Source: an uncultured Flavobacteriales bacterium (GTDB taxonomy: Bacteria > Bacteroidota > Bacteroidia > Flavobacteriales_G > Salibacteraceae). From it: a stretch of DNA of 64,000 nucleotides. The stretch lies in NCBI GenBank assembly GCA_913020435.1, contig CAJVZZ010000001.1, positions 108,105-172,104 on the forward strand. Direction: 5' to 3'. This document shows positions 4,833 to 24,333 of the stretch, one piece after another. The notes beneath the pieces are model-generated. The model was not told the DNA's origin and searched no databases. It was given only the letters and a program-made list of their open reading frames with translations. A program made the position numbers and the translations under genes. Numbering within the stretch: position 1 is the stretch's first letter; the number at the start of each line of letters is the position of its first letter.

Positions 4833-4987
4833 ATCTATTTTTAGTTTAACATAATGTTGGGATAAAGATATAGTAATTTTTACCACAAGGTAATTTTACC
4901 TAAATTTTTTATTTGGAAAAACAGATTATTAATTAAGGTGATAATCAATAATACGAAAGGCGTTAAAAAAACTTCAGTTAAACTCTG

Positions 4988-6154: not shown

Positions 6155-6196
6155 AAGAGGTAGATTAAATTCTATACAAATTAAGAAAAATCAACG

Positions 6197-7564: not shown

Positions 7565-7582
7565 AATAATTTTATCTTTTAA

Positions 7583-9052
7583 TTAATACCCAGAGTTTTG
7601 ACTCCACTTGCTTCCCGAAAGCACAATTTCTACTTGTGGGATTGGAAATAAGTTATGTTTTCCATCAATGAAACCTTCGATTTTATTCGCTGCCTCACCA
7701 GTCCTTACCAAGTCGAAAAATCGAAAACCTTCACCGCAGAGTTCAAGTCTTCTTTCATTATAAATGTCTTTAGTTAACTGTTCTCCTGAACTTGATAAAG
7801 CAGGAATTCCAGCTCTAATTCTCACTTCGTTAACATATTGCATTGCTTTGCCTGCACTTCCAATCTCACTATGAGCTTCAGCAGCCATTAATAAAACGTC
7901 AGCGTATCTTATAACACGATAGTTTACTGGACTCGTTAAGTCATTGTCTGGCAAACCAAATTCACCAATTCTTTTAATATATTTATTGTTATAATATCCT
8001 GTATGTCCACCTCCGCCTATTGCATAGGTAATTTCGGAGTTTGATTGTGCCGCAATAAAAGCGTCAATATCAAGTACGCTCGCATCCCTTCTTACATTAT
8101 CATTTGGACCAAATGCACCATATAAATCCTTAGTAGGTAGGTTGTAACTATTTCCATCGCCATATACAGGGCCAGAATATTGTCTTATACCTTGAAATCC
8201 TGGCGCAGCATTACCTTCTAAACAGATCAAACAACTATAGCTTCCACCTTCTAAACCCGAATATTGAACGTCAAAAACAGTTTCAGAGTTTCCTTCTGAA
8301 TTTTCAGCAAAAAGAGTACTGTAGTCCGCTGCTAATTCATATTGACCAGAGTTAATTACTTGATCTAAAACGTCAGCGCATTCAGCGAATTTACTCTGGT
8401 ATAAGTAAACTCTACCTAGAAGTGACTTTGCCGCTCCAGCCGTTGCTTTACCCTTTATAACTGCGATAGCAGGTAAAAGAGCTGAAGCATAAATAAGGTC
8501 CTTTTCAATTTGTTCATATACTAGAGCTTTAGGAGTTCTTTCCTTTTCTTTTAGTTCATCGATTCCAATTCGTTCATCAACTAATAGAGGAATATCGCCG
8601 AAGTATTTAACCAATTGAAAATAATAGTAAGCTCTTAGAAACCTAACCTCGGCAAGTAATTGTTTCTTACCAGTAAAAGAAATATTGTCCTTGTTTTGCA
8701 TTATGTAATTCGTTCTTGTAATTCCGGCATAATTCCACCTAAGAACGTTTCTTAGTTCAATATTTACACCGCCATGACTCATAGTTTCAATATCATGAAG
8801 GCCTTTTGAATCGACTACACTTTCACCACCAGCAATAGAGTTGTCTGAGGCGATTTCTCCAATCCAAAGATTCATAAATGAGCCTTGTAGAAGATCATAT
8901 GCTCCAACAAGGGCAGTGCGATAATGTTCCTCTTCAGTAAAGAAGTTTTCAGCATCTTGACTATAAAGTGGGTCTGTATCTAAATATTTCTTGCATCCTA
9001 CCGATACGATAGAGACTAAAATTACCAACGATAAAATCTTTAGTGTTTTCAT
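7583..9052 (-). CDS. susD: SusD/RagB family outer-membrane glycan-binding lipoprotein
   Basis: Lipobox (VSVGCKKYLDTDP) and typical SusD-like helical sequence. It lies 5 nt downstream of the SusC-like gene. Confidence 0.85.
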   Translation of the reverse strand: MKTLKILSLVILVSIVSVGCKKYLDTDPLYSQDAENFFTEEEHYRTALVGAYDLLQGSFMNLWIGEIASDNSIAGGESVVDSKGLHDIETMSHGGVNIELRNVLRWNYAGITRTNYIMQNKDNISFTGKKQLLAEVRFLRAYYYFQLVKYFGDIPLLVDERIGIDELKEKERTPKALVYEQIEKDLIYASALLPAIAVIKGKATAGAAKSLLGRVYLYQSKFAECADVLDQVINSGQYELAADYSTLFAENSEGNSETVFDVQYSGLEGGSYSCLICLEGNAAPGFQGIRQYSGPVYGDGNSYNLPTKDLYGAFGPNDNVRRDASVLDIDAFIAAQSNSEITYAIGGGGHTGYYNNKYIKRIGEFGLPDNDLTSPVNYRVIRYADVLLMAAEAHSEIGSAGKAMQYVNEVRIRAGIPALSSSGEQLTKDIYNERRLELCGEGFRFFDLVRTGEAANKIEGFIDGKHNLFPIPQVEIVLSGSKWSQNSGY

Positions 9053-9057
9053 TTCTA

Positions 9058-12000
9058 TTAAAATTTGAAATTAGTACCTAACATAAATGTTCTTGCTTGA
9101 GGATAAAAGCCATAATCAACTCCTGCTGATAAAGCTCCACCTGCTGAACCAAATTCCGGATCAAAACCTCTATAACCTGTTATTGTAAATACGTTGTTAA
9201 CAGATCCATAGACTCTAATTGATCTCATTTTTATTTTTTTGACAAATTTCGAGTTGAAGGTATAACCCACTTGAATATTTCTAAGTCTTACAAAGTTCCC
9301 TGATTCAACATAATAATCTGAAAATTCTGAATTTCTATTAGCTTCTGAGGTAACTCTAGGGACTTCGTCAGAAGTACCATCGCCAACCCAACGATCTATA
9401 ACATACGCTTGCTGATTTGCATAGGGTTGAAGCCTTTCATAATTTCGAATGATTTGTTGACCAATAGCAGAATATATGTTTGCAGAAGCGTCAAAGTTTT
9501 TATAGGTAGCATTTAAGCTTAAGCCAAACGTGAAATCTGGGATAGGTGATCCTAATTCTTTTTTATCAGTATCATCATTAAAGTTAATTACACCATCTCC
9601 ATTTTGATCGACATAAATCAAATCACCAGGTTTTGCATCTGGTTGAACTACTGCTGCATTGTCAATTTGTGCTTGATTCTGAAAAATACCATCTGTTTCT
9701 AGTCCGTGGAAGTACCCAATTGCAAATCCTTCTTGAAAACGAGTTGCTACGTTTCCTCCAACACCAAACTCGGCGCCAGGAATAAATTCAACACCATCGG
9801 GAACTTTAGTTACTTTATTACTGAGTAAGGTAGTGTTGAATTGTCCTCCTATTATAAAATCGTTCATTCTATCTGTAGTGTAACCAATTTCTAATTCAAT
9901 TCCTCTGTTAGAAACATCTCCAGCATTAATGAATGGAGGCTGACCGCCTGGACCGTATGAACCTAAAACAGCAGATACATCAGGTTGGAATAGTAAATCC
10001 TGAGTGTTTTTCATAAAGAAGTTTGTAGTAACATCCCACTTTTCCCATAGCTCTAAATCAAATCCAATATTCAACTGGCGAGTAGTTTCCCATCTTAAAT
10101 CTGGATTACCAGCTCTACCTATAGCCACTCCTTGGGTAATAATATCATCAAAGACGTAAACACCTTCTCCATTGAGATCAGCTCTATATGCAAAATTTTG
10201 AATTTGATCGTTTCCTGCAATACCAAAACTTGTTCTCATTTTTCCGAATGTAATAATGTTAGAACCAAAGAACGATTCATCTGAGAAAATCCAAGCACCA
10301 CTTACCGCAGGGAAGGTGCCGTATTTATTGTTGGGACCAAATTTTGTTGAACCATCCCTCCTTACTATAACAGAAACGAGATATCTATGATCATAACCGT
10401 ATTCTAATCTCAAGAAAGTTGATAGTAAACGTTCTTCATATTGAAAAGAACCCGTATTATTTAAAAGCCCCCCATCTGCTTGATTAGCAGAAATATCCGC
10501 AAAATCTAGAGAATTACCTGGAATATTAAATGCAGATCCGCTTAATTGATCTCCAGTTCTTTTGAAAATTGAAGCACCGGCTGTACCTTTAATTTGATGT
10601 TTCTTCTTAAATGTTCTGTCATAATTTAAAAAGGACTCTCCTGAGAGATCTACATAGGTAGTTTTTGCCTCATAAACACTTGCACCTCTTTCAATAAAAG
10701 TGCTGTCACCAATTTCGACCATCGTAGGATCTAAATTTGCATTAAGGGCCGTGTTCTGCGCTTTTCCAGGGCCATACCAAGTAAGTGGAGAGAAACTTTT
10801 TGCATCAACTAATGCGAAATTGTAATTGAATCTATTGGTAAACGTGAAGTGCTTATTGATTTTGAATGCAATTTCTTCTTTACCAACGAATTTGTTTACG
10901 ACAGCTTGATTGTATGTATTCTCCATTTGGGCAATTGGATTAATCACATCACTTACTTCTTCTAAATAGGAATAATTTCCGTTAGGAGTTTGAACAGGCT
11001 TTGTAGGCGAGGCATTGATAGTATTGTATAGCACAGAACCAATTCCGTTCTCAGGTAGAGTTTTTCTTTTTTCTTGGGTATATAGGAAAATGCTTGTAAG
11101 TTTAAACTTGTCATTGAGTTGAGTCACAAAATTTAAACGAGCATTGTAGCGTTCAAAATTTGATTTTTTACCTCCTATAATACCATCTTGGTTAAAGTAT
11201 GATCCCCCTACAGAAAAAGAGTTCTTTTTTGAGCCACCAGTGATAGAAATGTTGTGACTGTGCATCATGGCAGTTTGAAAAACTTCATCTTGCCAATTGG
11301 TCCCTCCACCAAGAGCGGTGTTATTAAAAGGAAGATCTTCACCTGCACTACCAAATATTTCGTTTTTGATTACGGCATATTCTTCAGCATTCAAAAGATT
11401 GAGTTTTCTTGCTGTTTGTTGAATTCCAGCATAAGAGTTAATTTCTATTTTGGTAGGGGAGTTGATTGTTCCTTTTTTGGTTTCGATAATTATTACACCA
11501 TTTGCTGCTCGAACTCCATATATACTAGCTGTTGCATCCTTTAAAATGTTTATTGACTCAATATCAGCTGGATTCAATGAATTTAATCCTTCCGAATCGT
11601 AAACAATACCGTCAACTAAAATTAGAGGATCGTTATCTCCAAAAGTAGAGAGTCCTCTGATTCTAATACTAGATGAGCCTCCCGGAGATCCTGAATTGGT
11701 ATTTATGTTAACTCCAGACACTTGACCTTGAAGAGCCTGGTCCATTCTAGGAATGTTTAATTTTTCCAGAGCGGCTCCTTCTACCTTAGCAGTAGCACCT
11801 GTAACTTCTTTTTTTGTTGTTGTGCCATATCCTACAACCACGACCTCTTCCAGAACACTGGCACTTGCTGCAAAATCAATATTAACTTCTAATCTCCCAG
11901 CAACTGGAACTTCTTGAGTCTCAAAACCAAGAAATGAAAACACAAGAACCGCTGTGTTGGCATCACTAACGGACATTTGAAAATTTCCATCTATATCTGT

Positions 12001-12186
12001 TGTTACTCCATTAGATGTACCTTTTTCTATCACTGTTGCACCAGGGACTGTTTCTCCTGTATCGTCTTTAACTTTTCCTTTAATTTTCGTATTTTGAGCT
12101 AGGGCTGGAATACTCATTAGTGCAACACTCAAGCATATTAGAGCGTATGATTTGAAAGCCTTCTTTAAAGATTTTGTTAACGACAT
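9058..12186 (-). CDS. susC: SusC/RagA family TonB-dependent outer-membrane transporter
   Basis: N-terminal carboxypeptidase-regulatory-like domain (KIKGKVKDDTGETVPGATVIEKGTSNGVTTDIDGNFQM). A VVVGYG TonB-box/plug region, a long beta-barrel and a C-terminal F follow. Start placed at ATG 12184-12186 (MSLTKSLKK). Confidence 0.9.
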   Translation of the reverse strand: MSLTKSLKKAFKSYALICLSVALMSIPALAQNTKIKGKVKDDTGETVPGATVIEKGTSNGVTTDIDGNFQMSVSDANTAVLVFSFLGFETQEVPVAGRLEVNIDFAASASVLEEVVVVGYGTTTKKEVTGATAKVEGAALEKLNIPRMDQALQGQVSGVNINTNSGSPGGSSSIRIRGLSTFGDNDPLILVDGIVYDSEGLNSLNPADIESINILKDATASIYGVRAANGVIIIETKKGTINSPTKIEINSYAGIQQTARKLNLLNAEEYAVIKNEIFGSAGEDLPFNNTALGGGTNWQDEVFQTAMMHSHNISITGGSKKNSFSVGGSYFNQDGIIGGKKSNFERYNARLNFVTQLNDKFKLTSIFLYTQEKRKTLPENGIGSVLYNTINASPTKPVQTPNGNYSYLEEVSDVINPIAQMENTYNQAVVNKFVGKEEIAFKINKHFTFTNRFNYNFALVDAKSFSPLTWYGPGKAQNTALNANLDPTMVEIGDSTFIERGASVYEAKTTYVDLSGESFLNYDRTFKKKHQIKGTAGASIFKRTGDQLSGSAFNIPGNSLDFADISANQADGGLLNNTGSFQYEERLLSTFLRLEYGYDHRYLVSVIVRRDGSTKFGPNNKYGTFPAVSGAWIFSDESFFGSNIITFGKMRTSFGIAGNDQIQNFAYRADLNGEGVYVFDDIITQGVAIGRAGNPDLRWETTRQLNIGFDLELWEKWDVTTNFFMKNTQDLLFQPDVSAVLGSYGPGGQPPFINAGDVSNRGIELEIGYTTDRMNDFIIGGQFNTTLLSNKVTKVPDGVEFIPGAEFGVGGNVATRFQEGFAIGYFHGLETDGIFQNQAQIDNAAVVQPDAKPGDLIYVDQNGDGVINFNDDTDKKELGSPIPDFTFGLSLNATYKNFDASANIYSAIGQQIIRNYERLQPYANQQAYVIDRWVGDGTSDEVPRVTSEANRNSEFSDYYVESGNFVRLRNIQVGYTFNSKFVKKIKMRSIRVYGSVNNVFTITGYRGFDPEFGSAGGALSAGVDYGFYPQARTFMLGTNFKF

Positions 12187-12402
12187 AGTTATAGTTATTT
12201 GTACCATTACTCTTGCAATGTTAATTTATTTTAACGGTTTTTCAAAAGAAAATAATCTTCAAATCATATAATAATGCTTTTTTTCAATATATATTCCTTG
12301 ATAAAAGGTTCAGAAAGCTCATGAATATCTTACTAATATTGAATTAATTTGCAAAAATATTTTAATATAAATTCTTTCTAACTTTTGAAAGATTCAGTTA
12401 TT

Positions 12403-13155
12403 ATGGCAGAAAAAAAAGAGAATTCTTTAGAAAAAGTTCTAGGACATCAGTTTAGTGCATTTTATAAAATTCCTCTCGACAAGTTTTTTCAGTTTGCTTT
12501 ATCTGTTGATTGCGTTATCCTAGGATATGTCGAAGATACTCTAAAACTGCTGGTCATTGAAAGGGGCGCTGAACCTCACAAGGGAAAAATGGCACTTCCC
12601 GGTGATTTAGTTTATCCAAGTGAAGACATGGATCTAGCTGCGAGTAGAGTTTTAAATGAACTAACTAACCTTGAGGAAGTTAATATGACCCAATTTCACA
12701 GCTACGGTCAAGTGGATAGGCACCCTGTAGGCAGAGTAATTACTGTTGGGTATTATTCGTTAATCAGTGTAGATCAATATGATCCATTGGCTAATTCATG
12801 GGCTGATAATGTTTCGTGGTTAGACGTGAAAAGCTTACCGAAATTGGCTTTTGATCATAATGAAATTGTAGATGAAGCTCTCCGAGCCTTAAAGCAAAGA
12901 GTTAGACTTCAACCAATTGGATTTAAGTTACTGCCTAAGGAATTTACATTGGGACAGATGCAAGATTTGTACGAAACAATTCTGGATGTAGCTTTTGATA
13001 AGGCAAATTTTCGGAAGAAAATTTTAGGAATGAATTTATTAAAAGACTCTGGTAAACTCCAGATTGATGTACCCCACAGGCCGGGTAGACTATATTCCTT
13101 TAATAAGTCTGCCTACGAGTCTTTACTGCAAACTGGTTACACCTTTGAGTTATAG
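12403..13155 (+). CDS. NrtR/AraR-like transcriptional regulator (degenerate Nudix domain plus C-terminal winged helix)
   Basis: The Nudix-box region GDLVYPSEDMDLAASRVLNELTNL keeps the G and R but lacks the catalytic REUxEE glutamates. The C-terminal half looks like a winged helix (FTLGQMQDLYETILDVAFDKANFRKKI). It lies between the two divergent PUL arms. Start at ATG 12403. Confidence 0.65.
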   Translation: MAEKKENSLEKVLGHQFSAFYKIPLDKFFQFALSVDCVILGYVEDTLKLLVIERGAEPHKGKMALPGDLVYPSEDMDLAASRVLNELTNLEEVNMTQFHSYGQVDRHPVGRVITVGYYSLISVDQYDPLANSWADNVSWLDVKSLPKLAFDHNEIVDEALRALKQRVRLQPIGFKLLPKEFTLGQMQDLYETILDVAFDKANFRKKILGMNLLKDSGKLQIDVPHRPGRLYSFNKSAYESLLQTGYTFEL

Positions 13156-13226
13156 TAGCTAGCGTTTTTTTAAAATCAGTTAAGTGTTTGGTATAGGTCG
13201 AGTTGTCAATTCAACCTAATTGTCTA

Positions 13227-13250
13227 TATTAGGATATCATTATCCTTATA
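13227..13250. promoter_or_regulatory. Imperfect palindrome, candidate operator upstream of zwf
   Basis: TATTAGGATA-TCAT-TATCCTTATA. The AGGATA (13231-13236) and TATCCT (13241-13246) half sites are perfect inverted repeats. The site lies 24 nt upstream of a -7-type promoter box. Confidence 0.3.
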
Positions 13251-13273
13251 GTAAAATAAACCATAAGTATTTT

Positions 13274-13281
13274 TATATTTG
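13274..13281 (+). promoter_or_regulatory. Bacteroidetes-type -7 promoter box (TAnnTTTG) for the zwf operon
   Basis: TATATTTG is an exact match to TAnnTTTG and ends 18 nt before the GTG start at 13300. Chance matches are common in AT-rich DNA. Confidence 0.3.
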
Positions 13282-13299: not shown

Positions 13300-14772
13300 G
13301 TGACTGAAGAATTTGAACTTATAATTTTTGGTGGAGACGGAGATTTATCATATCGAAAAATCTATCCAGCATTATATCACAGACTGAACGAAGGACAGAT
13401 TTCGAAAAATGTAAGAATTCTTGCTGTTTCTAGAAAACCTTACGAGATAGAAGATTTTCGTCAGAAAGTTAAGTCTGAGATATTGTCTTACGTGAAGGAT
13501 GCTAATATTAAAATTGTTGATCAATTGATTAGCTTGATTTCTAATGGGCGTATTGATACCAATAAGGGTGAAGAATGTGCAGTTACGAAAAGCTGGTTTT
13601 TAGAATCGACTGACTACGTAAGAGTGTTTTATCTAGCTACTCCTGCAGTGGTTTTTGGTTCAATATCAAAGTATCTGGATAAAATGCAGTATATAACTGC
13701 AAAGTCTAGGGTAGTATTGGAAAAACCTCTTGGAAAAAACTTAGAAAGTTCGGAGCAGATAAATGATGAGGTAGCAAAGTATTTTAAAGAAGAACAGATT
13801 TATAGAATTGATCATTATCTTGGAAAAGAGACTGTTCAAAATTTAATGGTCCTTCGATTTGCAAATAACATTTTTGAAAGTTCTTGGAACGCCAAGGATA
13901 TTGATAATGTGCAGATTACAGTGGCAGAATCAATTGGCGTAGGAACTAGGGGAGCTTTTTATGATCAATATGGCGCTTTGCGTGATATGGTTCAAAATCA
14001 TTTGTTGCAACTGCTTTGTTTGATTGCAATGGAGCCTCCAGTTAATTTGGAAGCTGACGAAGTTCGTGATGAAAAATTAAAAGTGCTGAAAGCACTCCGA
14101 TTTTATACTCCGGAAACAATTAATGAAAATACTGTCAGAGGTCAATACACCAGGGGTGGATCAGATACCGATCCATTGCCATCATACTTAGAAGATATTG
14201 AAAAGTTCAGTTCAAAGACTGAAACTTTCGTTGCTTTGAAGGCGAATATTGATAATTGGCGCTGGGGCGGTGTTCCTTTTTATTTGAGGACAGGTAAAAG
14301 AATGCCACATCGGTATTCGGAGATTATTATCAACTTCAAAAAAGTGCCGCATAATATTTTTCCAGATAAAAAAAATGTTGAAAGTAACCGGTTAACAGTG
14401 CGTCTTCAGCCTGATGAGAAAATCGAATTGCTTCAGATGGTTAAAGTTCCAGGTCCAGGAGGGTATCGTTATAAGCCATATGCGCTTGAACTGGATTATG
14501 CGGATCATTTTGAACATAGGTTTCCAGAGGCTTATGAGCGCCTACTTATGGATGTAGTGCGGGGAAATCAAACCTTATTTATGAGACGGGATGAAGTAAA
14601 GGCATCTTGGGAATGGATTGAATCCATTACTAAAAACTGGGAAACCAATAACGTATCTAATGTATTGTATGAAGCTGACTCTTGGGGGCCAGGCGGTGAT
14701 ATATTAGAGGAAGACCATAAGTGGGCAAAATCGCATCATGTAAAGAGGCTAGAAGAAAAACAAAAAGGATAA
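13300..14772 (+). CDS. zwf: Glucose-6-phosphate 1-dehydrogenase
   Basis: Signature RIDHYLGKE, an N-terminal dinucleotide-binding region (IIFGGDGDLSYRKIYPAL) and typical length (490 aa). GTG start. Confidence 0.9.
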   Translation: MTEEFELIIFGGDGDLSYRKIYPALYHRLNEGQISKNVRILAVSRKPYEIEDFRQKVKSEILSYVKDANIKIVDQLISLISNGRIDTNKGEECAVTKSWFLESTDYVRVFYLATPAVVFGSISKYLDKMQYITAKSRVVLEKPLGKNLESSEQINDEVAKYFKEEQIYRIDHYLGKETVQNLMVLRFANNIFESSWNAKDIDNVQITVAESIGVGTRGAFYDQYGALRDMVQNHLLQLLCLIAMEPPVNLEADEVRDEKLKVLKALRFYTPETINENTVRGQYTRGGSDTDPLPSYLEDIEKFSSKTETFVALKANIDNWRWGGVPFYLRTGKRMPHRYSEIIINFKKVPHNIFPDKKNVESNRLTVRLQPDEKIELLQMVKVPGPGGYRYKPYALELDYADHFEHRFPEAYERLLMDVVRGNQTLFMRRDEVKASWEWIESITKNWETNNVSNVLYEADSWGPGGDILEEDHKWAKSHHVKRLEEKQKG

Positions 14773-15464
14773 TGTTAGATAGCGCTAATTACAATAGAGA
14801 AATAGTTGATTCTGAATTACAAGTCTCAATAATTGCGGCTTTGAAGGATGAAATTCGTGCATTTGGTTCGGCTTCTTTATTGGTCTCAGGTGGTTCAACT
14901 CCAAAAAGATTATTTGACCTTTTATCCAACGAGAAATTAGAGTGGGATAAGGTTACACTTTCGCTAGTAGACGAACGATTTCTTCCAAATGGACATACAG
15001 ATCAAAATGGAGAGCTGATAAAGGAACACCTGTTGAAAAATGAAGCGATTAAAGCTAATTTTATCCCTCTCGTATTTGACCCGGCTGATGCAGAAAACAA
15101 CTTAAAGATGGCTGTTAAAGCTTTTGAAAATGTAAGTAGGCCTTTTACTGTTGTAGTTTTAGGGCTGGGTAAAGATGGTCATACAGCATCTCTTTTCCCA
15201 GATTCGCCGATGCTAGATAAGGCTATGGATAAAAACTCTTCAGAAATTCTACTAAACGTAACAACACCGAGTTCACCATATTCTAGAATTACTTTTAGCC
15301 GAAAAGTATTATTAGATGCGAAGAATTTATTTCTGCACTATTATGGCGTAGAGAAAAAAGAAATATTGGACAGTGTTTTAGATTGTACTAATCAAGAAAA
15401 ATACCCAATTTCAGGTTTTGTAAATCAACAAGAAAATATCCTGAAAGTTTATTGGGCAATGTAA
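14772..15464 (+). CDS. pgl: 6-phosphogluconolactonase
   Basis: SGGSTP and GLGKDGHTASLFP motifs. The ATG overlaps the zwf stop (TAATG). Confidence 0.85.
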   Translation: MLDSANYNREIVDSELQVSIIAALKDEIRAFGSASLLVSGGSTPKRLFDLLSNEKLEWDKVTLSLVDERFLPNGHTDQNGELIKEHLLKNEAIKANFIPLVFDPADAENNLKMAVKAFENVSRPFTVVVLGLGKDGHTASLFPDSPMLDKAMDKNSSEILLNVTTPSSPYSRITFSRKVLLDAKNLFLHYYGVEKKEILDSVLDCTNQEKYPISGFVNQQENILKVYWAM

Positions 15465-15467
15465 ATT

Positions 15468-17270
15468 ATGAACGAAACTATAAAGCAAATTACCGAGCGA
15501 ATTAGAGAACGTTCAGCGAAATCAAGAGCAGAATATATGAACTTGATGGAGAATAGCGCGCAAAATTCTGTTACTAGAAGTGGATTGGCATGTGGCAATC
15601 TTGCTCATGCATTTGCGGCTTGTAATGATGATGATAAAATGGATTTGAGTGAAAATATCTCTTGCAATTTTGCTATTATCACTTCCTATAATGATATGCT
15701 AAGTGCGCACAAGACTTATGAGGATTACCCGATCAAATTAAAGGCCTATGCTAATAAATATGGTTCTGTTGCTCAAGTAGCATCAGGAGTTCCTGCCATG
15801 TGTGATGGTGTTACACAAGGACAGGCTGGAATGGAGTTGTCATTATTTAGTAGAGATATAATTGCTTTGTCAACTGCAATAGGACTTTCCCACCAAATGT
15901 TCGACGGAGGCATGTGCTTAGGTATCTGCGATAAAATAGTTCCTGGAATGCTAATAGGGTCTTTAAGGTTTGGTCATTTGCCATTTGCATTTATACCCGG
16001 TGGTCCAATGGAATCTGGAATAACCAATGAAGAAAAAGCTCTTGCAAGAACAGAATATGCTGAAGGTAAAATTGGAAGAAAAGAGCTGTTAGCATCAGAA
16101 TCAGCATCTTATCACTCTGCTGGAACGTGCACATTCTATGGAACTGCTAACAGCAATCAAATGCTAATGGAAATTATGGGCATTCATTTGCCAGGTTCTT
16201 CATTCGTTAATCCAGGAACTCCTCTTCGAGACGCATTGAATGAATTTGCGGTAAAGCGACTTTCCCAAATAACTCATCAATCAAAAGAATATACTCCCCT
16301 TCACAAAGTTGTATCAGAGGAATGTATTGTTAATGCATTAGTCGGATTGGTTGCAACTGGAGGTTCAACGAATCATACGATACATCTTGTTGCAATTGCT
16401 AGAGCTGCAGGAATCATTATAGACTGGAATGATTTTAATGACGTTTCTGAGGTTGTACCCTCCATAACAAGAGTTTATCCAAATGGTTCTGCAGATATCA
16501 ATCATTTTCAAGCATGTGGAGGAATGGGATTCCTTATGAAAACACTTATAGATGGTGGGTATTTAAATGAAAATGTGAGTACTCTGATGGGACGCGGACT
16601 GGACCATTACACTAAGGAACCATTTTTAAATAACGGAAAGTTGGAATGGAGAGCTGCACCTGCTGAGTCGCTTGATGAAACAGTTTTAAGAGGTACTTCA
16701 AATCCATTTGCACCTAATGGTGGAATGAGATTACTAGAAGGGAATTTAGGAAGAGCAGTAATAAAAATTTCTGCAGTAAAAGAACAGCATCAAATTGTGC
16801 AAGCAGAAGCGGAGGTTTTCGAAGATCAAGATGATGTTCTTGTCGCTTTTACTGAGAAAAAACTAAATAAGGATGTTGTGGTCGTTGTGCGAAATCAGTC
16901 TGCTACTGAAAATGGAATGCCTGAACTTCATAAGCTGACTCCAACTCTGAGTATACTGCAACAAAATGGATTTAAAGTTGCTTTGGTGACAGACGGAAGA
17001 ATGTCTGGAGCGTCAGGTAAAGTTCCTGCAGCAATTCATCTTTCTTCAAAGAATGGCAGTAATGCCTTAATTAATAAGTTACAATCTGGTGATCCTATTC
17101 TTCTAAACGCTAAGACCGGTGTTTTGAGTTGTTTGAATGCCGATGAAGTTATTTTAAGAGAAAATTCGGCACAACCTCCAGGTGATGGTCAAGGTGTTGG
17201 TCGTGAGTTGTTCGAACGTCTAAGGCCGCTAGTTTCGGAAAGTGAAAATGGAGCTTCATTTATTATTTAA
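15468..17270 (+). CDS. edd: Phosphogluconate dehydratase (Entner-Doudoroff dehydratase)
   Basis: Collinear by eye with E. coli Edd as I remember it ([81 protein letters not shown]). 600 aa. Confidence 0.92.
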
Positions 17271-17857
17271 TGGATAAAATGAAGAATAATATTAGAGAAA
17301 TATTAGTACTGAATCCGTTGGTTCCTGTAGTCACATTTCATGAGAATGATGACCCTCTTGCATTCATGGAGTTCTTGCTCAAGCAAAATGTTAATTGTAT
17401 TGAAATTACACTAAGAACTAACAGTGGATTATCTGCAATTGAAAGTATAAAAAAGGAATTTGACACCGTAAAAGTTGGAGCAGGAACAGTTATAAATGGG
17501 GATCAAGTAAAAATATTGCGTGATTTAGGCGCAGACTTTATGGTTAGTCCAGGTACTACTAAAAAGTTGATAAAAGAATTTATTAATTCAGAGGTTCCAT
17601 TTATAAATGGAGTTAGTACTGCAAGCGAAATCATTTTAGCAAAAGAGTTAGGCCTAAATACGCTAAAGTTTTTCCCAGCTCATTTATATGGTGGGATAGA
17701 CGCAATAAAAATGTTTGGGCAACTATTTCCTGACGTGAAATTTTGTCCAACAGGTGGAATTAATGAACAAAGCAGCAAAGAATATCTGGAGCAATCCAAC
17801 GTCATTGCTGTTGGTGGGTCATGGTTTCAAAAAGAGTACAAGAATCTAAGAAAATAA
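17270..17857 (+). CDS. eda: 2-keto-3-deoxy-6-phosphogluconate (KDPG) aldolase
   Basis: IEITLRT and LKFFPA (Schiff-base lysine region) motifs. The ATG overlaps the edd stop. Confidence 0.85.
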   Translation: MDKMKNNIREILVLNPLVPVVTFHENDDPLAFMEFLLKQNVNCIEITLRTNSGLSAIESIKKEFDTVKVGAGTVINGDQVKILRDLGADFMVSPGTTKKLIKEFINSEVPFINGVSTASEIILAKELGLNTLKFFPAHLYGGIDAIKMFGQLFPDVKFCPTGGINEQSSKEYLEQSNVIAVGGSWFQKEYKNLRK

Positions 17858-17870
17858 AAAGAATAAAATT

Positions 17871-18764
17871 ATGATTGCAATCGCTGAAAGCGGATCTACT
17901 AAATGCGAATGGGTAATAATTGATGAAAGTTCAATTGAAGTTGCCAGAATTCGCACACAAGGTTTTAACCCTTACTTTCATTCAAGTGAGTTAGTCAAAA
18001 CCAAACTTTTAGGAACTGATGAATTTTCATCGTTTCTTTCTAAAATGAAAGAAGTATATTTTTATGGTGCAGGTTGTTCTAGTTCAGAATTGAATGAAAT
18101 TATTAAAGTAGGATTAAAGGGAGCTTTTCCCAATGCCAAAATATATGTAGATCATGATCTACTAGCTAGTGCATATTCTCTTTATGAAGGTAAGCCTCTG
18201 GTATCTTGTATTTTAGGCACAGGTTCTAATTCATGTTATTACAATGGAGTTGAACTGAAGCAAGTAAATCCTGCTCTTGGGTTTATTTTGGGAGATGAAG
18301 GTGGTGGGGCTTATTTTGGAAAAAAATTACTCAATGATTTCTTCTACAAAAAATTGCCCTTAGAGATTTACGAAGACTTTAATAAGACCTTCAATCTAGA
18401 TTGGGAGGCGGCTAGAAAAAACATCTATTCAAACATTTTTGCGAATGTTTATCTCGCTTCTTTTATGCCATTTATTGCCAAGCACAAGGATAATTACTAC
18501 GTTAAGGAGATGATTAAGCAGGGCTTTGCAAGGTTTATTGATGTACACGTAATGAGTTACCCTGTTTCTAAAGATGTTCAAATAGGTTTCGTAGGTTCAA
18601 TAGCTTCAATTTTTCAAGATATTCTCGAAAAAGAATTGGTGAAAAGAGAACTTGAATTGTATAAAATTGTTCGAAGTCCCATCGATGAATTAGTTAATTA
18701 TCATGTTAAACAATTTAAGTCGAAAATTAGTTCGAATAAAAATAATTCAGTACAGGTTAACTAA
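17871..18764 (+). CDS. BadF/BadG/BcrA/BcrD-type sugar kinase (putative glucokinase / N-acetylglucosamine-kinase-like)
   Basis: N-terminal IAESGSTKCEW and GTGSNS motifs of the ASKHA/BadF-type kinases that are usually annotated as N-acetylglucosamine kinase in Bacteroidetes. The context suggests glucose phosphorylation. Confidence 0.6.
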   Translation: MIAIAESGSTKCEWVIIDESSIEVARIRTQGFNPYFHSSELVKTKLLGTDEFSSFLSKMKEVYFYGAGCSSSELNEIIKVGLKGAFPNAKIYVDHDLLASAYSLYEGKPLVSCILGTGSNSCYYNGVELKQVNPALGFILGDEGGGAYFGKKLLNDFFYKKLPLEIYEDFNKTFNLDWEAARKNIYSNIFANVYLASFMPFIAKHKDNYYVKEMIKQGFARFIDVHVMSYPVSKDVQIGFVGSIASIFQDILEKELVKRELELYKIVRSPIDELVNYHVKQFKSKISSNKNNSVQVN

Positions 18765-20062
18765 TGGCACAATTAGCAAAATGGAAACATCGAATGCTTA
18801 ACCTTGGGTTAAACTTTTTGGTATGCTCTATTTTGTATTGTAGCTTATTTTCTTGCTCTGCTCCTGAAGTTAAAAATCTTGCAGCTTCTGAAATATTAGG
18901 TAATCTGAATTATCCAGCACTTTGCTATGGGGGTTATCGTTCAAATTCACGCAAAATTGAACCTTCTAAGGAGGAGTTAAAAGAAGATTTAATAATCCTT
19001 TCAGCACTCGGAATCAAAATTTTGAGAACTTATCATGCAGCTGAATTTGGGCAAGCAGAAAATCTTTTAAAAGTTATTTCAGAATTAAAAGAGGATAATC
19101 CAAATTTTGAAATGTATGTCATGCTTGGTGCCTGGATTGAGTGCAAGAATGCTTGGACCGATTTACCCGATCATACTTTAGAAAATTTTGAGAAGAATAA
19201 AAATGAGGTTAGAACTGCTATTCGACTCGCAACTTCATATCCCGACATTGTAAAAGTAATTGCTGTTGGTAACGAATCTATGGTGCATTGGGCAGCAAGT
19301 TACTTTGTTCATCCTGAGGTAGTATTACGTTGGGTTAACCTTGTGCAATCACTAAAAAGTAAAGGCAAATTATCTAAAGACTTGTGGGTTACTAGTTCCG
19401 ATAATTTTGCTTCTTGGGGTGGAGTAGATAGCTCTTACCACAATGCAAGTCTGTTAGAATTGATTGATGCCGTGGATTATGTTTCCATACACACTTATCC
19501 ATTTCATGACACTCATTATGATGGTGAATTTTGGATTCAACCAGACAGCAATGATGTATTAATTAAGAAATCTCAAATAGACTTTGGAATGGCTAAGGCA
19601 GTAGAACATGCTCAAAGTCAATTCAGTTCGGTTAAGAGTTTCATGCAGGAAAATGGAATTAAAAAACCAATTCACATTGGAGAAACTGGTTGGGCAACTA
19701 TTTCTACGGATAATTATGGCCATAATGGAACTAATGCAGCCGACGAATACAAGCAAAGAGCTTACTATTTGGGAATGAAAAACTGGATAGATTCCATAGG
19801 TGTAAGTTGCTTCTTTTTCGAAGCATTTGATGAGCCGTGGAAAGATGCCAGAAATACTAGCGGTTCAGAAAATCATTTTGGTTGGATTGATATTGAAGGT
19901 AAGGCCAAATGTATTTTGTGGGATCAAATTGATCAAGGAAAGCTAAACGGTCTAAAACGAAATAATATAGAAATTACTAAAAGCTACAATGGAAATTTAG
20001 ACTCAATGCTGCTTTATAGCTCAGCTCCTCCTATAAAAGTTTTAGAAAACGATACATTATGA
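18764..20062 (+). CDS. GH17 family beta-1,3-glucanase lipoprotein
   Basis: GH17-like acid/base (AVGNESMVHW) and nucleophile (IHIGETGWAT) regions, with a lipoprotein-like signal (SLFSCSAPE). Confidence 0.75.
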   Translation: MAQLAKWKHRMLNLGLNFLVCSILYCSLFSCSAPEVKNLAASEILGNLNYPALCYGGYRSNSRKIEPSKEELKEDLIILSALGIKILRTYHAAEFGQAENLLKVISELKEDNPNFEMYVMLGAWIECKNAWTDLPDHTLENFEKNKNEVRTAIRLATSYPDIVKVIAVGNESMVHWAASYFVHPEVVLRWVNLVQSLKSKGKLSKDLWVTSSDNFASWGGVDSSYHNASLLELIDAVDYVSIHTYPFHDTHYDGEFWIQPDSNDVLIKKSQIDFGMAKAVEHAQSQFSSVKSFMQENGIKKPIHIGETGWATISTDNYGHNGTNAADEYKQRAYYLGMKNWIDSIGVSCFFFEAFDEPWKDARNTSGSENHFGWIDIEGKAKCILWDQIDQGKLNGLKRNNIEITKSYNGNLDSMLLYSSAPPIKVLENDTL

Positions 20063-21618
20063 AACAAAAAAACAGAATTCTAGTTCAAATCGCATTAATT
20101 GTTGCCTTAGGTGGGCTTTTAATGGGTTTTGACGCCTCAGTAATATCAGGTGTGATTCAGTTTATTGAGGTGGAATTTGCGCTTACAAAACTAGAATTAG
20201 GCTGGGCCGTAGCTTCACTTACTCTTACTGCAACTTTAGCGATGATGGTCGCTGGACCTTTGAGTGATCGATTTGGAAGAAGGACTATACTGCGATATGC
20301 CGCCATTTTATACACTCTTTCGGCAATTGGGTCCGCTTTTGCACCTTCATTTATTTGGCTAGTTGTAGCTCGAATGGTTGGCGGTTTTGGTGTTGGAGCT
20401 TCGCTCATATTGGCCCCCATGTATATTGCTGAAATGGCACCGCCTAGAATTAGAGGTAGACTAGTATCATTTAACCAATTGAATATCGTAATTGGAATAT
20501 CCTTGGCATTTTTTACCAATTATCTTATTCTTCAATTTGCAAAATCAGATGCTAGTTGGGCTCAATCTCTTGGTTTTAATCAATACAATTGGCGTTGGAT
20601 GCTTGGCCTTGAAGCTTTACCTGCTATTCTCTATTACTTAGGTTTATTTTTCGTTCCAAAGAGTCCGCGTTGGTTAATTCTTAAAGGAGAATTTGAAAAA
20701 GCGAAAGAAGTAATGTCACGCTTTAATTCTGAAAAAGACACTGAAGAGGTTATTGCTCAAATGATTGAAAAGAACAATAATCCTGGAGTAAAAAAGGAAG
20801 GTAAAATTTCAGATTTATTTAAACCGGCAATGCGGCTTGTTCTTACTATTGGCATTGTGGTGGCAGTGCTCCAGCAAATAACGGGAATCAATTCCGTGTT
20901 TTTCTATGCTCCAATGATTTTTGAGCAATCAGGAATAGGAACAGATGCTTCTTTTATGCAGGCTATATTAGTTGGTATTGTAAACTTAGTTTTTACATTA
21001 TTGGCGATGTACTTTATTGACAGGCTGGGACGTAAACCCTTGTTAAGTGTTGGAGTTGCAGGAATTGCACTTTCTATGTTTTTATTGGCGTTCGAATTTA
21101 ATTCGGCAACCTACCAACTTACTCCAGAAAAAATGAATCAATTATCTTTAAAAATGGAAATTGGTGCATTAGGATCATTGAACAATATTACTTATGAATC
21201 TGAAAGTGAATTCAAAGTTGCGCTTATTGCTAATCTAGGTAAAGAAGAGTTTGAAGCAAATAAAGAGGTGTTATTGAAAACGGCAGTTTCCATGAATTCG
21301 ATGCTAATATTATTTGCGATTTTAGGATTTGTAGCCTCCTTTGCATTTTCAATAGGGCCTGTTATGTGGGTGCTATTTTCAGAATTATTTCCAAATTACA
21401 TACGAGGTATCGCTATTTCGTTTGTTGGTTTAATTAATTCTGGAATTAGCTTCGTTGTTCAGTGGGTTTTCCCTTGGGAATTAGAAGTTCTTGGAAGTGA
21501 TGTGACTTTTTTAATCTATGGAATATTTGCAGCCATCGGATTTGTGTTTATCATCAAGGTAATCCCTGAAACAAAAGGTAAGTCACTAGAAGAAATTGAA
21601 GCTCAACTGGTAAAATAG
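20059..21618 (+). CDS. MFS sugar-porter family transporter with an enlarged loop between TM9 and TM10
   Basis: Sugar-porter motifs (GRR, PKSPRWL, PETKG) and 12 predicted TM segments. An extra hydrophilic segment of about 68 aa is encoded at 21097-21300. The ATGA overlaps the GH17 stop. Confidence 0.85.
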   Translation: MKQKNRILVQIALIVALGGLLMGFDASVISGVIQFIEVEFALTKLELGWAVASLTLTATLAMMVAGPLSDRFGRRTILRYAAILYTLSAIGSAFAPSFIWLVVARMVGGFGVGASLILAPMYIAEMAPPRIRGRLVSFNQLNIVIGISLAFFTNYLILQFAKSDASWAQSLGFNQYNWRWMLGLEALPAILYYLGLFFVPKSPRWLILKGEFEKAKEVMSRFNSEKDTEEVIAQMIEKNNNPGVKKEGKISDLFKPAMRLVLTIGIVVAVLQQITGINSVFFYAPMIFEQSGIGTDASFMQAILVGIVNLVFTLLAMYFIDRLGRKPLLSVGVAGIALSMFLLAFEFNSATYQLTPEKMNQLSLKMEIGALGSLNNITYESESEFKVALIANLGKEEFEANKEVLLKTAVSMNSMLILFAILGFVASFAFSIGPVMWVLFSELFPNYIRGIAISFVGLINSGISFVVQWVFPWELEVLGSDVTFLIYGIFAAIGFVFIIKVIPETKGKSLEEIEAQLVK

Positions 21619-21624
21619 ATAATT

Positions 21625-22821
21625 ATGAAAGAAATAATCTTTGGGTCAATTCTTTGTCTTGCCATGGTCGGATGCAATACGAACCGAGCTATTGAGGCTG
21701 CAGGTCAAGCTGAATCTCTTTCCGAGAAAAGAATAGTGGTGCCCTTTGATAGTTCCAATTTTGAAAGTGAAACGCAAAATTTCACTACAATTATCCAAAC
21801 TACCGGAAGATACAAGATTTCCGTTTTTGGCTCTAAAGGTAGCGGTGAAGTTTGGATCGAAGATTACGTTGAAAATCAAGATCAACGAGAGTACAATATT
21901 ACTGGGAGCCTGAAAATAGCCCAAAATTCAACTGCAAGTATTGAAGGTTCGCCTCTTGCTTCTGGAGAGCACAGCATGCAAGTGCATAAATCAATTAATT
22001 TTCAAGTTGACAGTTTGGTGTTAGAATTAATCCAGAATAACCAAGATACAAAAGACACTTTAGTTCAAAACACTGAAGGGGAGAAATGGGAATTGGTATG
22101 GTCTGATGAATTTGAAAATGCGGGTCTCCCAGATAGTACAAAATGGAGCTATAATATTGGAAATTGGGGATGGGGAAATAATGAACTGCAGTATTATACT
22201 TCCGATAAATTAGAAAATGCTAAAATTGAAGATGGAAACCTTGTAATAACGGCAATCAAAGATCTTAAAGATTCAACATGGACTTCTGCAAGATTGACCA
22301 CACAGGGTAAGGTTGCATTTAAATATGGGAAAATAGAGTTTAGAGCAAAAGTTCCTGCAGTTCGTGGCACTTGGGCAGCTGGTTGGTTGCTTGGAGATGC
22401 ATATCGAGATGAAATCTCTTGGCCATATTGTGGTGAAATTGATGTTCTGGAGTGTGTCGGTTATGAAATAAATGATACTACAGAAAAAGGAATAAATCAT
22501 GCAACTTGTCACACTAGAGCTTATTACTTCAAGCAGAACAATCAAATTGGAAGTGAGATAGAGTTGGATAGTATGCACTCAAAATTTCATACTTATTCTG
22601 TAGAATGGTATCCAAATGAAATCAAAGGTTTTGTAGATGGAATTCATTATTACACGTATGATAAAAACGCAAATGATCAAGAATGGCCATTTCACCAGTC
22701 ACAGAATATTATTCTAAACTTAGCTATTGGTGGTGGTTGGGGAGGATTAAAAGGTGTTGATCAATCTATGATTAGCCAGCAGTACACGATTGATTACGTA
22801 AGAGTTTTTGAAAAAAGATAA
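21625..22821 (+). CDS. GH16 family beta-1,3(4)-glucanase (laminarinase-type) lipoprotein
   Basis: Catalytic motif GEIDVLECVG plus WAAGWLLG, a lipobox (LAMVGCNTN) and an N-terminal module of about 150 aa of unknown type. Confidence 0.85.
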   Translation: MKEIIFGSILCLAMVGCNTNRAIEAAGQAESLSEKRIVVPFDSSNFESETQNFTTIIQTTGRYKISVFGSKGSGEVWIEDYVENQDQREYNITGSLKIAQNSTASIEGSPLASGEHSMQVHKSINFQVDSLVLELIQNNQDTKDTLVQNTEGEKWELVWSDEFENAGLPDSTKWSYNIGNWGWGNNELQYYTSDKLENAKIEDGNLVITAIKDLKDSTWTSARLTTQGKVAFKYGKIEFRAKVPAVRGTWAAGWLLGDAYRDEISWPYCGEIDVLECVGYEINDTTEKGINHATCHTRAYYFKQNNQIGSEIELDSMHSKFHTYSVEWYPNEIKGFVDGIHYYTYDKNANDQEWPFHQSQNIILNLAIGGGWGGLKGVDQSMISQQYTIDYVRVFEKR

Positions 22822-22823: not shown

Positions 22824-24332
22824 TTGAACTTTAGATTATTACTCATATTTTTCGTATTTATTGCATGCAATTCAAAGCGCGAACAGCATCTAAGTGTTCG
22901 AGTTTTTCAGACGAGTGCTAGTGGTGACAAACTGACTGAGAAAAGTTTGTCTGAATCGCAAAAATCTCCGGAACATACAGTTCAAATAAATCCAAATAAA
23001 AAATTTCAAGTCATAACAGGTATAGGTGGAGCTTTTACTGAATCTTCAGCATCTATTCTAAATCAATTGAGCAAATCCAATAGGGTTAAAATAATGAAGG
23101 CCTATTTTTCAGATAGCGGGGCTAATTATTCCTTGACTAGAACTCACATAAATTCCTGCGATTTTTCTTTAGGCACCTACTCTTATGATTCCGTCGTAAA
23201 TGATACTCAACTGCAATATTTTGATATTTCACCAGATAAGAACGATCTTATTCCAATGATAAAAGAAGCCCAAGCTATTTCTAACGAGGGGTTTAAAATC
23301 ATTGCTTCTCCTTGGACTGCTCCACCGTGGATGAAGGATAATAATAGCTGGAAAGGAGGGAAGTTACTTCCTAAATATTATACAACTTGGGCAAATTACT
23401 TGGTGAAGTATATTGATGAATACAAAAAAGAAGGAATACCAATTTGGGCATTAACTATAGAAAACGAACCGCTTGGAAATGGGGAGAACTGGGAAAGCAT
23501 GCACTATACACCTCAAGAAATGGCCAGTTTTATAAAAAGTCATTTGGGTCCGACCTTAGACAAGAATAACCTAGAAACTGAATTGTTGGTTTATGATCAA
23601 AATAGAGGAGAAGATTTAAATGCGTGGTCTTCAATTTTACTCACTGATAGTATGTTGGAACCTTACATATATGGAACAGCAGTTCATTGGTATTCTAGCA
23701 CAGTGGATTGGTTTCCGCAGTCTCTGCAGCAAACGCATGCATACGCCCCTCAAAAACATATCATTCAAACAGAGGGCTGTATTGATGCAGAAATTCCTAA
23801 GTGGAAAGACGATGCGTGGTATTGGAAAAAAGAAGCGACTGATTGGGGTTGGGATTGGGCAATTGAAGAAGACAAACCAAATCACCCAAAATATGTTCCT
23901 ACCTATAGGTATGCCCGTGATATAATAGGTTGTATGAATAACTGGGTAGAAGGTTGGATAGATTGGAATATGGTTTTGGATAAGAAAGGGGGCCCCAATT
24001 GGGCAAATAATTGGTGTATTGCTCCAGTAATAGCCGATCCAGAAAAAGATGAAGTTTATTTTACGCCATTGTATTATGTAATGGCTCATTTTAGTAAGTA
24101 TTTTCGGCCCAATTCAAGGAGAATAGAATGTATTTCAACTTCAGATGGTCTGCTAGTTACAGCTGTTGAAAATACTACTGGAAGTATAGCTGTTGCTGTT
24201 TTAAATGAACAGAATGACCCACTTACTTTCAATTTAAAAATAGGGTCACAATCTCAGATAGTAGAAATTGAAGGTAAGGCATTGCAAACTATCATAGTTA
24301 ACGGAAAATCAATACTGAAAAAAGCAAATTAG
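22824..24332 (+). CDS. GH30 family glycosidase (beta-1,6-glucosidase-type) lipoprotein
   Basis: GH30-like acid/base TIENEPLG and nucleophile-region IIQTEGC, with a lipobox (FVFIACNSK). TTG start 2 nt after the GH16 stop. Confidence 0.8.
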   Translation: MNFRLLLIFFVFIACNSKREQHLSVRVFQTSASGDKLTEKSLSESQKSPEHTVQINPNKKFQVITGIGGAFTESSASILNQLSKSNRVKIMKAYFSDSGANYSLTRTHINSCDFSLGTYSYDSVVNDTQLQYFDISPDKNDLIPMIKEAQAISNEGFKIIASPWTAPPWMKDNNSWKGGKLLPKYYTTWANYLVKYIDEYKKEGIPIWALTIENEPLGNGENWESMHYTPQEMASFIKSHLGPTLDKNNLETELLVYDQNRGEDLNAWSSILLTDSMLEPYIYGTAVHWYSSTVDWFPQSLQQTHAYAPQKHIIQTEGCIDAEIPKWKDDAWYWKKEATDWGWDWAIEEDKPNHPKYVPTYRYARDIIGCMNNWVEGWIDWNMVLDKKGGPNWANNWCIAPVIADPEKDEVYFTPLYYVMAHFSKYFRPNSRRIECISTSDGLLVTAVENTTGSIAVAVLNEQNDPLTFNLKIGSQSQIVEIEGKALQTIIVNGKSILKKAN

Positions 24333-24333
24333 A

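Follow-up and report, generated by a model that had tools for sequence, protein, structure and literature searches.

An eleven-gene string uniting the Entner-Doudoroff pathway with laminarin-degrading enzymes in an uncultured marine Salibacteraceae bacterium

Introduction

Laminarin is among the most abundant marine glycans, and the polysaccharide utilization loci (PULs) of Bacteroidota are the standard model for its turnover, with the glucose released simply entering glycolysis. The locus considered here raises the question of whether a member of this phylum transcribes a complete glycolytic route, the Entner-Doudoroff (ED) pathway, together with the enzymes that break down the polymer, and, if so, whose promoter the two share. 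It lies in a 64-kb stretch of contig CAJVZZ010000001.1 (assembly GCA_913020435.1) from an uncultured Flavobacteriales bacterium of the Salibacteraceae. We refer to this whole stretch as the window, and all positions are those of the window. An initial annotation of the sequence had proposed that zwf, pgl, edd, eda and a BadF-type kinase are the first five genes of a PUL operon under a glycan-specific promoter. We conclude that positions 13300-29090 are probably a single 15.8-kb operon of this marine bacterium that would take laminarin fragments to pyruvate and glyceraldehyde-3-phosphate, and that the carbohydrate-active enzyme (CAZyme) genes have probably been appended behind one ancestral ED promoter.

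Results

An Entner-Doudoroff gene set leads a string of laminarin genes

Eleven co-directional open reading frames (ORFs) occupy the plus strand between 13300 and 29090, in the order zwf, pgl, edd, eda, BadF-type kinase, GH17, sugar-porter major facilitator superfamily (MFS) transporter, GH16, GH30, GH149 and a second MFS transporter (MFS2), where GH denotes a glycoside hydrolase family. Gene identities were assigned by Pfam, by NCBIfam curated equivalog cut-offs and by matches to structure sequences (Table 1). The phosphorylative ED set is complete, with Zwf, Pgl, Edd and Eda all scoring above their equivalog cut-offs. Aligned with the E. coli enzyme (1EUA), Eda keeps the IEITLRT (Glu45) and LKFFPA (Lys133) segments, and so has both the catalytic glutamate and the Schiff-base lysine of a class I KDPG (2-keto-3-deoxy-6-phosphogluconate) aldolase. 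The initial identification of the first five genes, including its emphasis on strong matches for edd and eda and on a KFFPA motif in Eda, is thereby borne out.

The fifth ORF was without a match in the Pfam search; its orthologues in related genomes do carry PF01869, and its own matches to 1ZXO and to N-acetylglucosamine (GlcNAc) and N-acetylmuramic acid (MurNAc) kinases of T. forsythia (9e-49 for 8OQK) place it in the BadF/BcrAD-type ASKHA family. The orthologues in relatives adjoin zwf, gapA or GH13, and it is from this retained linkage to zwf, gapA and glucan genes that we infer the kinase to be a glucokinase.

An identical Edd protein appears in the index of 69 sample blocks, Tara and Joint Genome Institute (JGI) ocean samples among them, and near-identical proteins are labelled 'Salibacteraceae bacterium' by NCBI.

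The string is tightly packed and RNA contigs cross its junctions as far as GH149

The ten gene junctions measure, in order, -1, 3, -1, 13, -1, -4, 6, 2, 1 and 11 nucleotides (nt). The stop and start codons overlap as TAATG at zwf/pgl, edd/eda and kinase/GH17, giving the three such overlaps reported initially, and as ATGA at the GH17/MFS junction. The same gene order is present on six independent metagenome contigs and is therefore not an assembly artefact. No terminator-like hairpin was found in any junction of the string. A terminator was also sought after the last gene, but the fold of 29080-29230 is no stabler than that of shuffled sequence (z = +1.1), and this candidate was rejected.

The TAnnTTTG box typical of Bacteroidetes promoters occurs three times on the plus strand between 13100 and 29100, against 10.6 expected. 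Of the three, only TATATTTG (13274-13281) stands in front of a start codon. The remaining two are intragenic, at 650 and 1614 nt into genes, and no box is found within 600 nt upstream of any internal start codon. A sigma-70 promoter scan, which returned 52 sites compared with 61 in shuffled sequence, is unsuited to Bacteroidota and was replaced by the TAnnTTTG scan.

Metatranscriptome assemblies extend this picture to RNA. In the marine metatranscriptome X1 a single contig of 6009 nt corresponds to 13368-19373, and so runs from zwf through the kinase and then 600 nt into GH17. Further X1 contigs bridge GH17/MFS, MFS/GH16, GH16/GH30 and GH30/GH149; no spanning contig for the GH149/MFS2 junction is among the X1 contigs listed. 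In X1 the ED part is covered to a depth of 36, the CAZyme genes to 14-44 per bin (16-28 by contig) and MFS2 to about 5, as against 1-3 for the adjacent pgm and mltG genes; the divergent susC unit is covered at 15-33. RNA depth over the rest of the window ranges from 0 to 62 and shifts at gene borders; the signal is therefore RNA and not contaminating DNA. Runs from other studies give the same pattern at lower coverage. The RNA contigs of three runs begin at 13294, 13299 and 13304, just 3' of the -7 box, and a separate RNA contig covers the upstream regulator gene (12397-13157).

Taken together, the genes are co-directional and closely spaced or overlapping, there is one suitably placed -7 box and none internally, hairpins are absent, RNA crosses every junction from zwf to GH149, and the arrangement is conserved in a sister species (see below). 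These observations support the placement of the ED genes and the laminarin CAZyme genes in the same transcription unit. They also uphold the initial proposal that the five genes run straight into GH17, since the kinase and GH17 genes overlap, no hairpin separates them and an RNA contig passes across; the scans for terminators and promoters showed neither a hairpin nor a TAnnTTTG box between eda or the kinase and GH17.

The promoter and candidate operator are those of the lineage's ED operon

A scan of species-representative genomes with Edd gave 25 Bacteroidota loci, all from Salibacteraceae, Crocinitomicaceae or related Flavobacteriales. In 17 of these a palindrome with the consensus CTTAGTGT-N7-ACACTAAG (CTTAnnGT-N7-ACnnTAAG) lies upstream of zwf, and 11 of the 17 have a TAnnTTTG box downstream of it at a distance of 6-8 nt (12 nt in one). 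A weight matrix built only from the relatives' zwf-upstream sites gives its best score in the whole 64-kb window, 14.8, to positions 13245-13267 (CTTATAGTAAAATAAACCATAAG), which lie 8 nt before the -7 box of the string; the next best score is 10.7. A first, 19-nt version of the matrix missed this site and the 23-nt version returned it as the top match. The site is conserved in the sister species as CTTATRGT-N7-ACCATAAG, and there it is a perfect palindrome within an otherwise diverged spacer. A different palindrome, AGGATA-N4-TATCCT (13231-13246), is unique in the window but not conserved in the sister species and was rejected as the operator.

Because the site precedes zwf in 17 related genomes whether or not CAZyme genes follow, the promoter is, as judged by this comparison, the ancestral ED-operon promoter of the Salibacteraceae/Crocinitomicaceae lineage. 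The description of it as glycan-specific in the initial annotation does not stand.

A core of the palindrome, TATAGT-N7-ACCA, occurs three times in the window against an expectation of 0.11, and none of 100 shuffled sequences reached three. All three sites are just 5' of a PUL transcription unit (Table 1). The site before susC falls within a 50-nt block conserved with the sister species, and the susC RNA contig ends at 12212. The longest susC ORF would begin at 12207, inside this operator-like site; the conserved ATG at 12186, which gives a protein of 1042 amino acids (aa) and is the choice of most gene callers, is the likelier start. With a start at 12186 the site would belong to the 5' leader and follow a TAACATTG box (minus strand, 12223-12216). 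The third site precedes the gene for a surface protein of the type IX secretion system (T9SS), whose RNA contig (2767-4836) has a depth of 38.7, while the neighbouring 1162-2709 has a depth of 0-1.4. Relatives have additional sites upstream of gapA-kinase, of the regulator gene and of an alpha-glucan PUL's susC.

The gene that ends 144 nt upstream of zwf encodes a regulator of 250 aa according to most gene callers (the longest ORF starts at 12385), with the N-terminal Nudix-like and C-terminal winged-helix domains of the NrtR/AraR family. It matches BtAraR (5BS6) at 6.6e-51 over residues 37-245. BtAraR is an arabinose-released repressor of the arabinose operon and of SusCD and glycosidase loci (PMC4666351). 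The palindrome before zwf is probably an operator through which the adjacent AraR/NrtR-family protein represses the string, and the effector is likely to be glucose or a derivative of it.

It is conceivable, if unlikely, that the palindromes are promoter elements of the -33 region or the sites of another factor, and that the Nudix-type regulator controls something else. The window's site is indeed where a -33 element would be, and in Algibacter a laminarin PUL without such sites has an NrtR-type gene, 41% identical, in its vicinity. A -33 element is nevertheless difficult to reconcile with the distance to the -7 box, which varies among the three window promoters. Moreover, the palindromes are two-fold symmetric with an 8-N7-8 layout, as would be expected of sites for a dimeric winged-helix protein like AraR (PMC4666351), and they occur together with the regulator gene, frequently upstream of that gene itself. 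We retain the assignment of the palindromes as probable operators of the adjacent regulator.

Relatives keep the ED module beside glucan genes in looser layouts

The order zwf-pgl-edd is found at all 25 loci, usually followed by eda. In a tree of Edd the Bacteroidota sequences form one clade with 100% support, in which the window groups with four marine Salibacteraceae-type metagenome-assembled genomes (MAGs); the ED module is therefore ancestral to the lineage, and recent acquisition of Edd from Proteobacteria was rejected on the same grounds. The tree also bears on the labels of some loci. A locus in a Sphingomonadales-labelled MAG (L032) has its Edd deep within the Bacteroidota clade, next to Flavobacteriales loci L019 and L042, and its contig is probably mis-binned. 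On the same grounds the 'Chitinophaga' labels of loci L013 and L021 look doubtful.

In at least 11 of the 25 loci the ED module stands beside alpha- or beta-glucan genes, in looser and varied layouts. These include SSF-GH3 ... zwf-eda / regulator / gapA-kinase; T9SS protein-GH16-GH?-kinase-zwf-pgl-edd-eda; an alpha-glucan PUL split around regulator-zwf-pgl-edd-eda; GH94-MFS divergent from zwf; and GH30-GH149-mfd-VTT / zwf-eda / regulator / gapA-kinase. The linkage of ED and glucan genes is thus recurrent in the lineage, and only the full fusion is special to this genus. The related genomes show what look like successive stages in the acquisition of glycan genes by an operon of central metabolism. 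Since relatives keep the same ED module by glucan genes in looser layouts, and the ED promoter and operator precede zwf with or without CAZyme genes, the laminarin CAZyme genes appear to have been appended to the lineage's regulated ED operon, rather than the ED genes having been captured by a glycan promoter.

A search with GH17 returned only one close relative outside the species, at 74% identity. The sister contigs have the identical string, susD-susC | regulator-zwf-pgl-edd-eda-kinase-GH17-MFS-GH16-GH30-GH149-MFS2 | pgm, with junctions of -4 to +11 nt. Pgl, Eda and GH17 are 68-74% identical between the two species and the junction sequences differ. Order and tight junctions have been kept despite this divergence, and selection therefore keeps the fusion. 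Third-codon-position identity between window 9058-29090 and the sister contig (L090, 298-20327) is a mosaic, being 52-57% in susC, the regulator gene, pgl and GH17, 73% in edd and 74-88% in MFS, GH16, GH30, GH149 and MFS2. The distal CAZyme block and edd look as if they had been exchanged between the two species more recently than the rest.

Neighbouring genes

Across the regulator gene from the string lies the divergent susC-susD unit, with SusC (Plug, CarboxypepD_reg and barrel) and SusD Pfam matches at 7583-12207. GH17, GH16, GH30 and GH149 are within 1-15 kb of this pair, and the locus is therefore a PUL. At the other end pgm is convergent with the string and outside the operon. Further away, a gene pair for fibre-like surface proteins (37205-40011) has, in several metatranscriptomes, some of the highest RNA levels of the window (37188-39437; depth 49 in X1 and 36-45 in X3).

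Table 1. Positions of the genes and of the predicted regulatory elements in the window
Feature	Position	Strand	Evidence or remark
T9SS surface-protein gene	2799-4832	-	ATG at 4832
Third operator-like site, GATATAGT-N7-ACCACAAG	4867..4889	+	About 35 nt upstream of the T9SS surface-protein gene (ATG at 4832)
susC-susD-PKD protein-GH16 unit	4988..12186	-	Divergent from the string; Pfam SusC, SusD; PKD and GH16 annotated on same-species contigs
Second operator-like site, GTTATAGT-N7-ACCATTAC	12188..12210	+	1 nt before the probable susC start codon (12186)
AraR/NrtR-family regulator (Nudix-like domain and winged helix)	12403..13155	+	Pfam NUDIX, AraR_C, NrtR_WHD (PF00293, PF19368, PF21906)
Candidate operator before zwf, CTTATAGT-N7-ACCATAAG	13245..13267	+	23-nt matrix; predicted site of the AraR/NrtR-type regulator
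Bacteroidetes-type -7 box, TATATTTG	13274..13281	+	19 nt upstream of the zwf start (GTG); unchanged in the sister species
zwf, glucose-6-phosphate dehydrogenase	13300..14772	+	GTG start; TIGR00871 534.8 bits (cut-off 400.6); Pfam G6PD_N, G6PD_C
pgl, 6-phosphogluconolactonase	14772..15464	+	TIGR01198 172.5 (cut-off 124.45); 230 aa per gene callers on six contigs
edd, phosphogluconate dehydratase	15468..17270	+	TIGR01196 900.2 (cut-off 708.25)
eda, KDPG aldolase	17270..17857	+	TIGR01182 190.1 (cut-off 156.05); E. coli 1EUA 3e-40
BadF/ASKHA-type sugar kinase	17871..18764	+	1ZXO 1e-55; T. forsythia GlcNAc/MurNAc kinases (8OQK/8OW7/8OW9) 1e-45 to 1e-49
GH17 beta-1,3-glucanase	18764..20062	+	Formosa GH17 structure 6FCG 1e-145; lipoprotein-like N-terminus (read by eye)
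Sugar-porter MFS transporter	20059..21618	+	Pfam Sugar_tr 1.7e-104; TIGR00879 348.6 bits
GH16 laminarinase-type glucanase	21625..22821	+	Pfam Glyco_hydro_16 2.8e-18
GH30, beta-1,6-glucanase type	22824..24332	+	Pfam GH30 4.3e-79; BT3312 endo-1,6-beta-glucanase model 1.3e-73, under that model's cut-off
GH149 beta-1,3-oligoglucan phosphorylase	24334..27765	+	6HQ6 1170 bits over residues 14-1141; without signal peptide
MFS2, second MFS transporter, last gene in the string	27777..29090	+	Pfam MFS_1 2.6e-21
pgm, phosphoglucomutase	29294..30700	-	Pfam PGM_PMM domains I-IV

Discussion

A proposed route from laminarin to pyruvate on one transcript

The gene content suggests a continuous route from polymer to central metabolism. 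The susC/susD-PKD-GH16 unit and the T9SS surface protein would capture laminarin oligosaccharides and import them, and GH17, GH16 and GH30, whose N-termini look lipoprotein-like when read by eye, would trim them in the periplasm. Glucose and short oligosaccharides would be taken up by the two MFS transporters. In the cytoplasm GH149 would phosphorolyse beta-1,3-oligosaccharides to glucose-1-phosphate, which the neighbouring Pgm would convert to glucose-6-phosphate, while the BadF-type kinase may phosphorylate free glucose. Zwf, Pgl, Edd and Eda would then carry glucose-6-phosphate to pyruvate and glyceraldehyde-3-phosphate. The ATP saved by phosphorolysis may compensate for the smaller ATP yield of the ED pathway. 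Transcription would start from a single promoter of the Bacteroidetes type, with its -7 box at 13274, and the AraR/NrtR-family regulator encoded next to it probably acts as a repressor via the 23-bp palindrome; the similar sites before susC and the T9SS gene would make the whole locus one regulon.

Several observations weigh against this reading of the locus. The RNA evidence consists of assembled and unstranded metatranscriptome contigs, so that start sites, strand and true local depth are not visible in it. The contigs of two runs begin upstream of the -7 box (13234 and 13262), which may reflect some read-through from the regulator gene or a further start site. Depth drops about 2-fold inside GH17 (19373-19481) and again at MFS2 (27675-29090), with a similar 5'-to-3' decay in other runs, and partial termination, processing or unequal mRNA stability must therefore occur; non-canonical internal promoters may also contribute. 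The operator score of 14.8 is lower than the scores of the relatives' sites. The nearest characterised relatives of the kinase act on GlcNAc or MurNAc, not glucose. Finally, the low level of pgm RNA (1-3 in X1, compared with 14-36 for the converging operon) fits poorly with a large phosphorolytic flux.

Two of these points invite further comment. The 5'-to-3' decay of RNA could reflect polarity, processing or attenuation within an operon. If phosphorolysis by GH149 is a major route, Pgm is not co-induced with it.

The depth profile could alternatively mean that the ED and laminarin genes are transcribed separately, from an unrecognised internal promoter before the kinase, GH17 or MFS gene, with the ED genes forming a housekeeping glycolytic operon and any read-through being incidental. 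This would account for the roughly 2-fold higher RNA depth over zwf-kinase than over the CAZyme genes in all runs, for the ED operon being a standalone unit in relatives, and for one X3 contig that begins exactly at 18764, the start of GH17. The X3 contigs are, however, short, low-coverage pieces. The kinase/GH17 and GH17/MFS overlaps leave no room for a promoter outside coding sequence, the 600 nt upstream of each internal start codon are free of TAnnTTTG boxes, and one RNA contig extends across eda and the kinase and 600 nt into GH17. The fused order and its overlaps have also been kept in the sister species despite 26-32% protein divergence. On this evidence we regard separate transcription as improbable and prefer a single operon. 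It is likewise improbable that the locus is mainly a module for glucose and NADPH supply, with Zwf and Pgl feeding the oxidative pentose-phosphate pathway, the kinase working in the recycling of amino sugars or peptidoglycan, and most of the carbon from laminarin still passing through an Embden-Meyerhof-Parnas (EMP) pathway encoded elsewhere. In favour of such a module, those relatives of the kinase that have been characterised phosphorylate GlcNAc and MurNAc, and most cultured Flavobacteriia are assumed to be EMP users; PMC4069401 makes this assumption for Gramella. Against it, Edd and Eda have no role in the pentose-phosphate pathway yet stand between pgl and the kinase, translationally coupled and equally expressed, and across the lineage orthologues of the kinase accompany zwf, gapA and alpha- or beta-glucan genes and never, in the loci examined, nag or mur genes.

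Beyond the single operon, we tentatively raise a broader possibility that we do not ourselves favour: that a glucan-to-ED regulon extending through the Salibacteraceae and Crocinitomicaceae is governed by a new glucose- or sugar-phosphate-responsive NrtR member of the AraR/XylR branch, replacing the BguR or hybrid two-component control usual in PULs, and that it has been condensed to one transcript in this genus. Glycolysis in these organisms might then depend on the ED pathway, with no Pfk, and the ATP saved through GH149 phosphorolysis would be combined with a route of lower yield that produces NADPH. If true, such a Pfk-less ED regulon would be a distinct physiological strategy among bloom-associated Bacteroidota.

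Significance and novelty

On the single-operon reading, an abundant, cosmopolitan and uncultured clade would transcribe polymer breakdown and a full ED route as one unit, highly expressed at sea. For some of the Bacteroidota that respond to blooms, glycolysis may proceed by the ED pathway, which yields NADPH and costs less protein; the same has been reported for many marine Proteobacteria. AraR/NrtR-type regulation would be a third type of laminarin-PUL control, here with a defined candidate operator. Catalogues of PULs that go no further than CAZymes and SusCD overlook catabolic modules on a shared transcript.

A search of the full-text literature found no description of zwf-pgl-edd-eda inside a Bacteroidota glucan PUL, and the one-string arrangement of ED and laminarin genes is apparently undescribed for Bacteroidota, yet it is built on known principles. 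The initial annotation had called the design unusual and had asked whether it was already described. It is unusual in that the full fusion is special to this genus and was not met in the literature; a neighbouring placement of ED and glucan genes is by comparison recurrent in the lineage.

Comparison with known systems

The closest counterpart of the locus is the 'variant 1' laminarin PUL of marine Flavobacteriaceae such as Formosa, Polaribacter and Ca. Prosiliicoccus (PMC6246565, PMC10108472), a family defined by GH149, GH30, GH17 and, with or without it, GH16_3, together with an MFS transporter (PMC10108472). The window has the same CAZyme set of GH149, GH17, GH30 and GH16 along with MFS, susC/susD and PKD protein genes, and its GH17 is 53-59% identical to the Flavobacteriaceae variant 1 enzymes. 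Variant 1 PULs are without zwf, pgl, edd, eda and the kinase, whereas the CAZyme genes of the window follow the ED genes on what is probably one transcript. Two control loci, one from Algibacter (L093) and L094, have the standard variant 1 CAZyme layout without ED genes.

Regulation differs as well. Standard variant 1 PULs are controlled by the membrane-spanning BguR (bioRxiv 10.64898/2026.01.10.698779), whereas the gene next to susC in the window encodes a soluble AraR/NrtR-type regulator, and no LuxR-type gene lies between 2.8 and 32 kb of the window. The Algibacter control locus does have the 41%-identical Nudix/AraR-type gene mentioned above (L093 18648-19367), which lies about 2.5 kb downstream from where the CAZyme genes of the laminarin PUL end. 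It was rejected as an instance of a shared system, its PUL being without matching operator sites.

The initial annotation held that PULs normally encode uptake and depolymerisation only, which is too narrow. The alginate PULs of Gramella forsetii and Zobellia carry kdgK, kdgA (eda) and sdr (PMC4069401, PMC7641319), and the AraR regulon of Bacteroides joins arabinose catabolism to SusCD (PMC4666351). Like the window, alginate PULs encode cytoplasmic catabolism to pyruvate and glyceraldehyde-3-phosphate via KDPG aldolase; unlike it, they have only the lower, shared ED step without zwf, pgl or edd, and their substrate is a uronate polymer, not glucose. The glucose/ED regulons of Proteobacteria, such as that of Pseudomonas HexR, likewise tie a zwf-pgl-edd-(glk)-eda operon to the uptake and hydrolysis of beta-glucosides through one repressor, but they use RpiR or LacI regulators, have no SusCD and keep hydrolases off the ED transcript.

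The nearest regulatory parallel is offered by the AraR and XylR regulons of Bacteroides, which are controlled by sugar-released repressors of the NrtR family (PMC4666351, PMC3878776). The regulator of the window shares their fold and family, and like them is accompanied by palindromic sites that would join a monosaccharide catabolic operon to SusCD and glycosidase loci. The sugars of AraR and XylR are pentoses that enter pentose pathways, whereas the regulator of the window would couple the ED route to a glucan through a different operator sequence.

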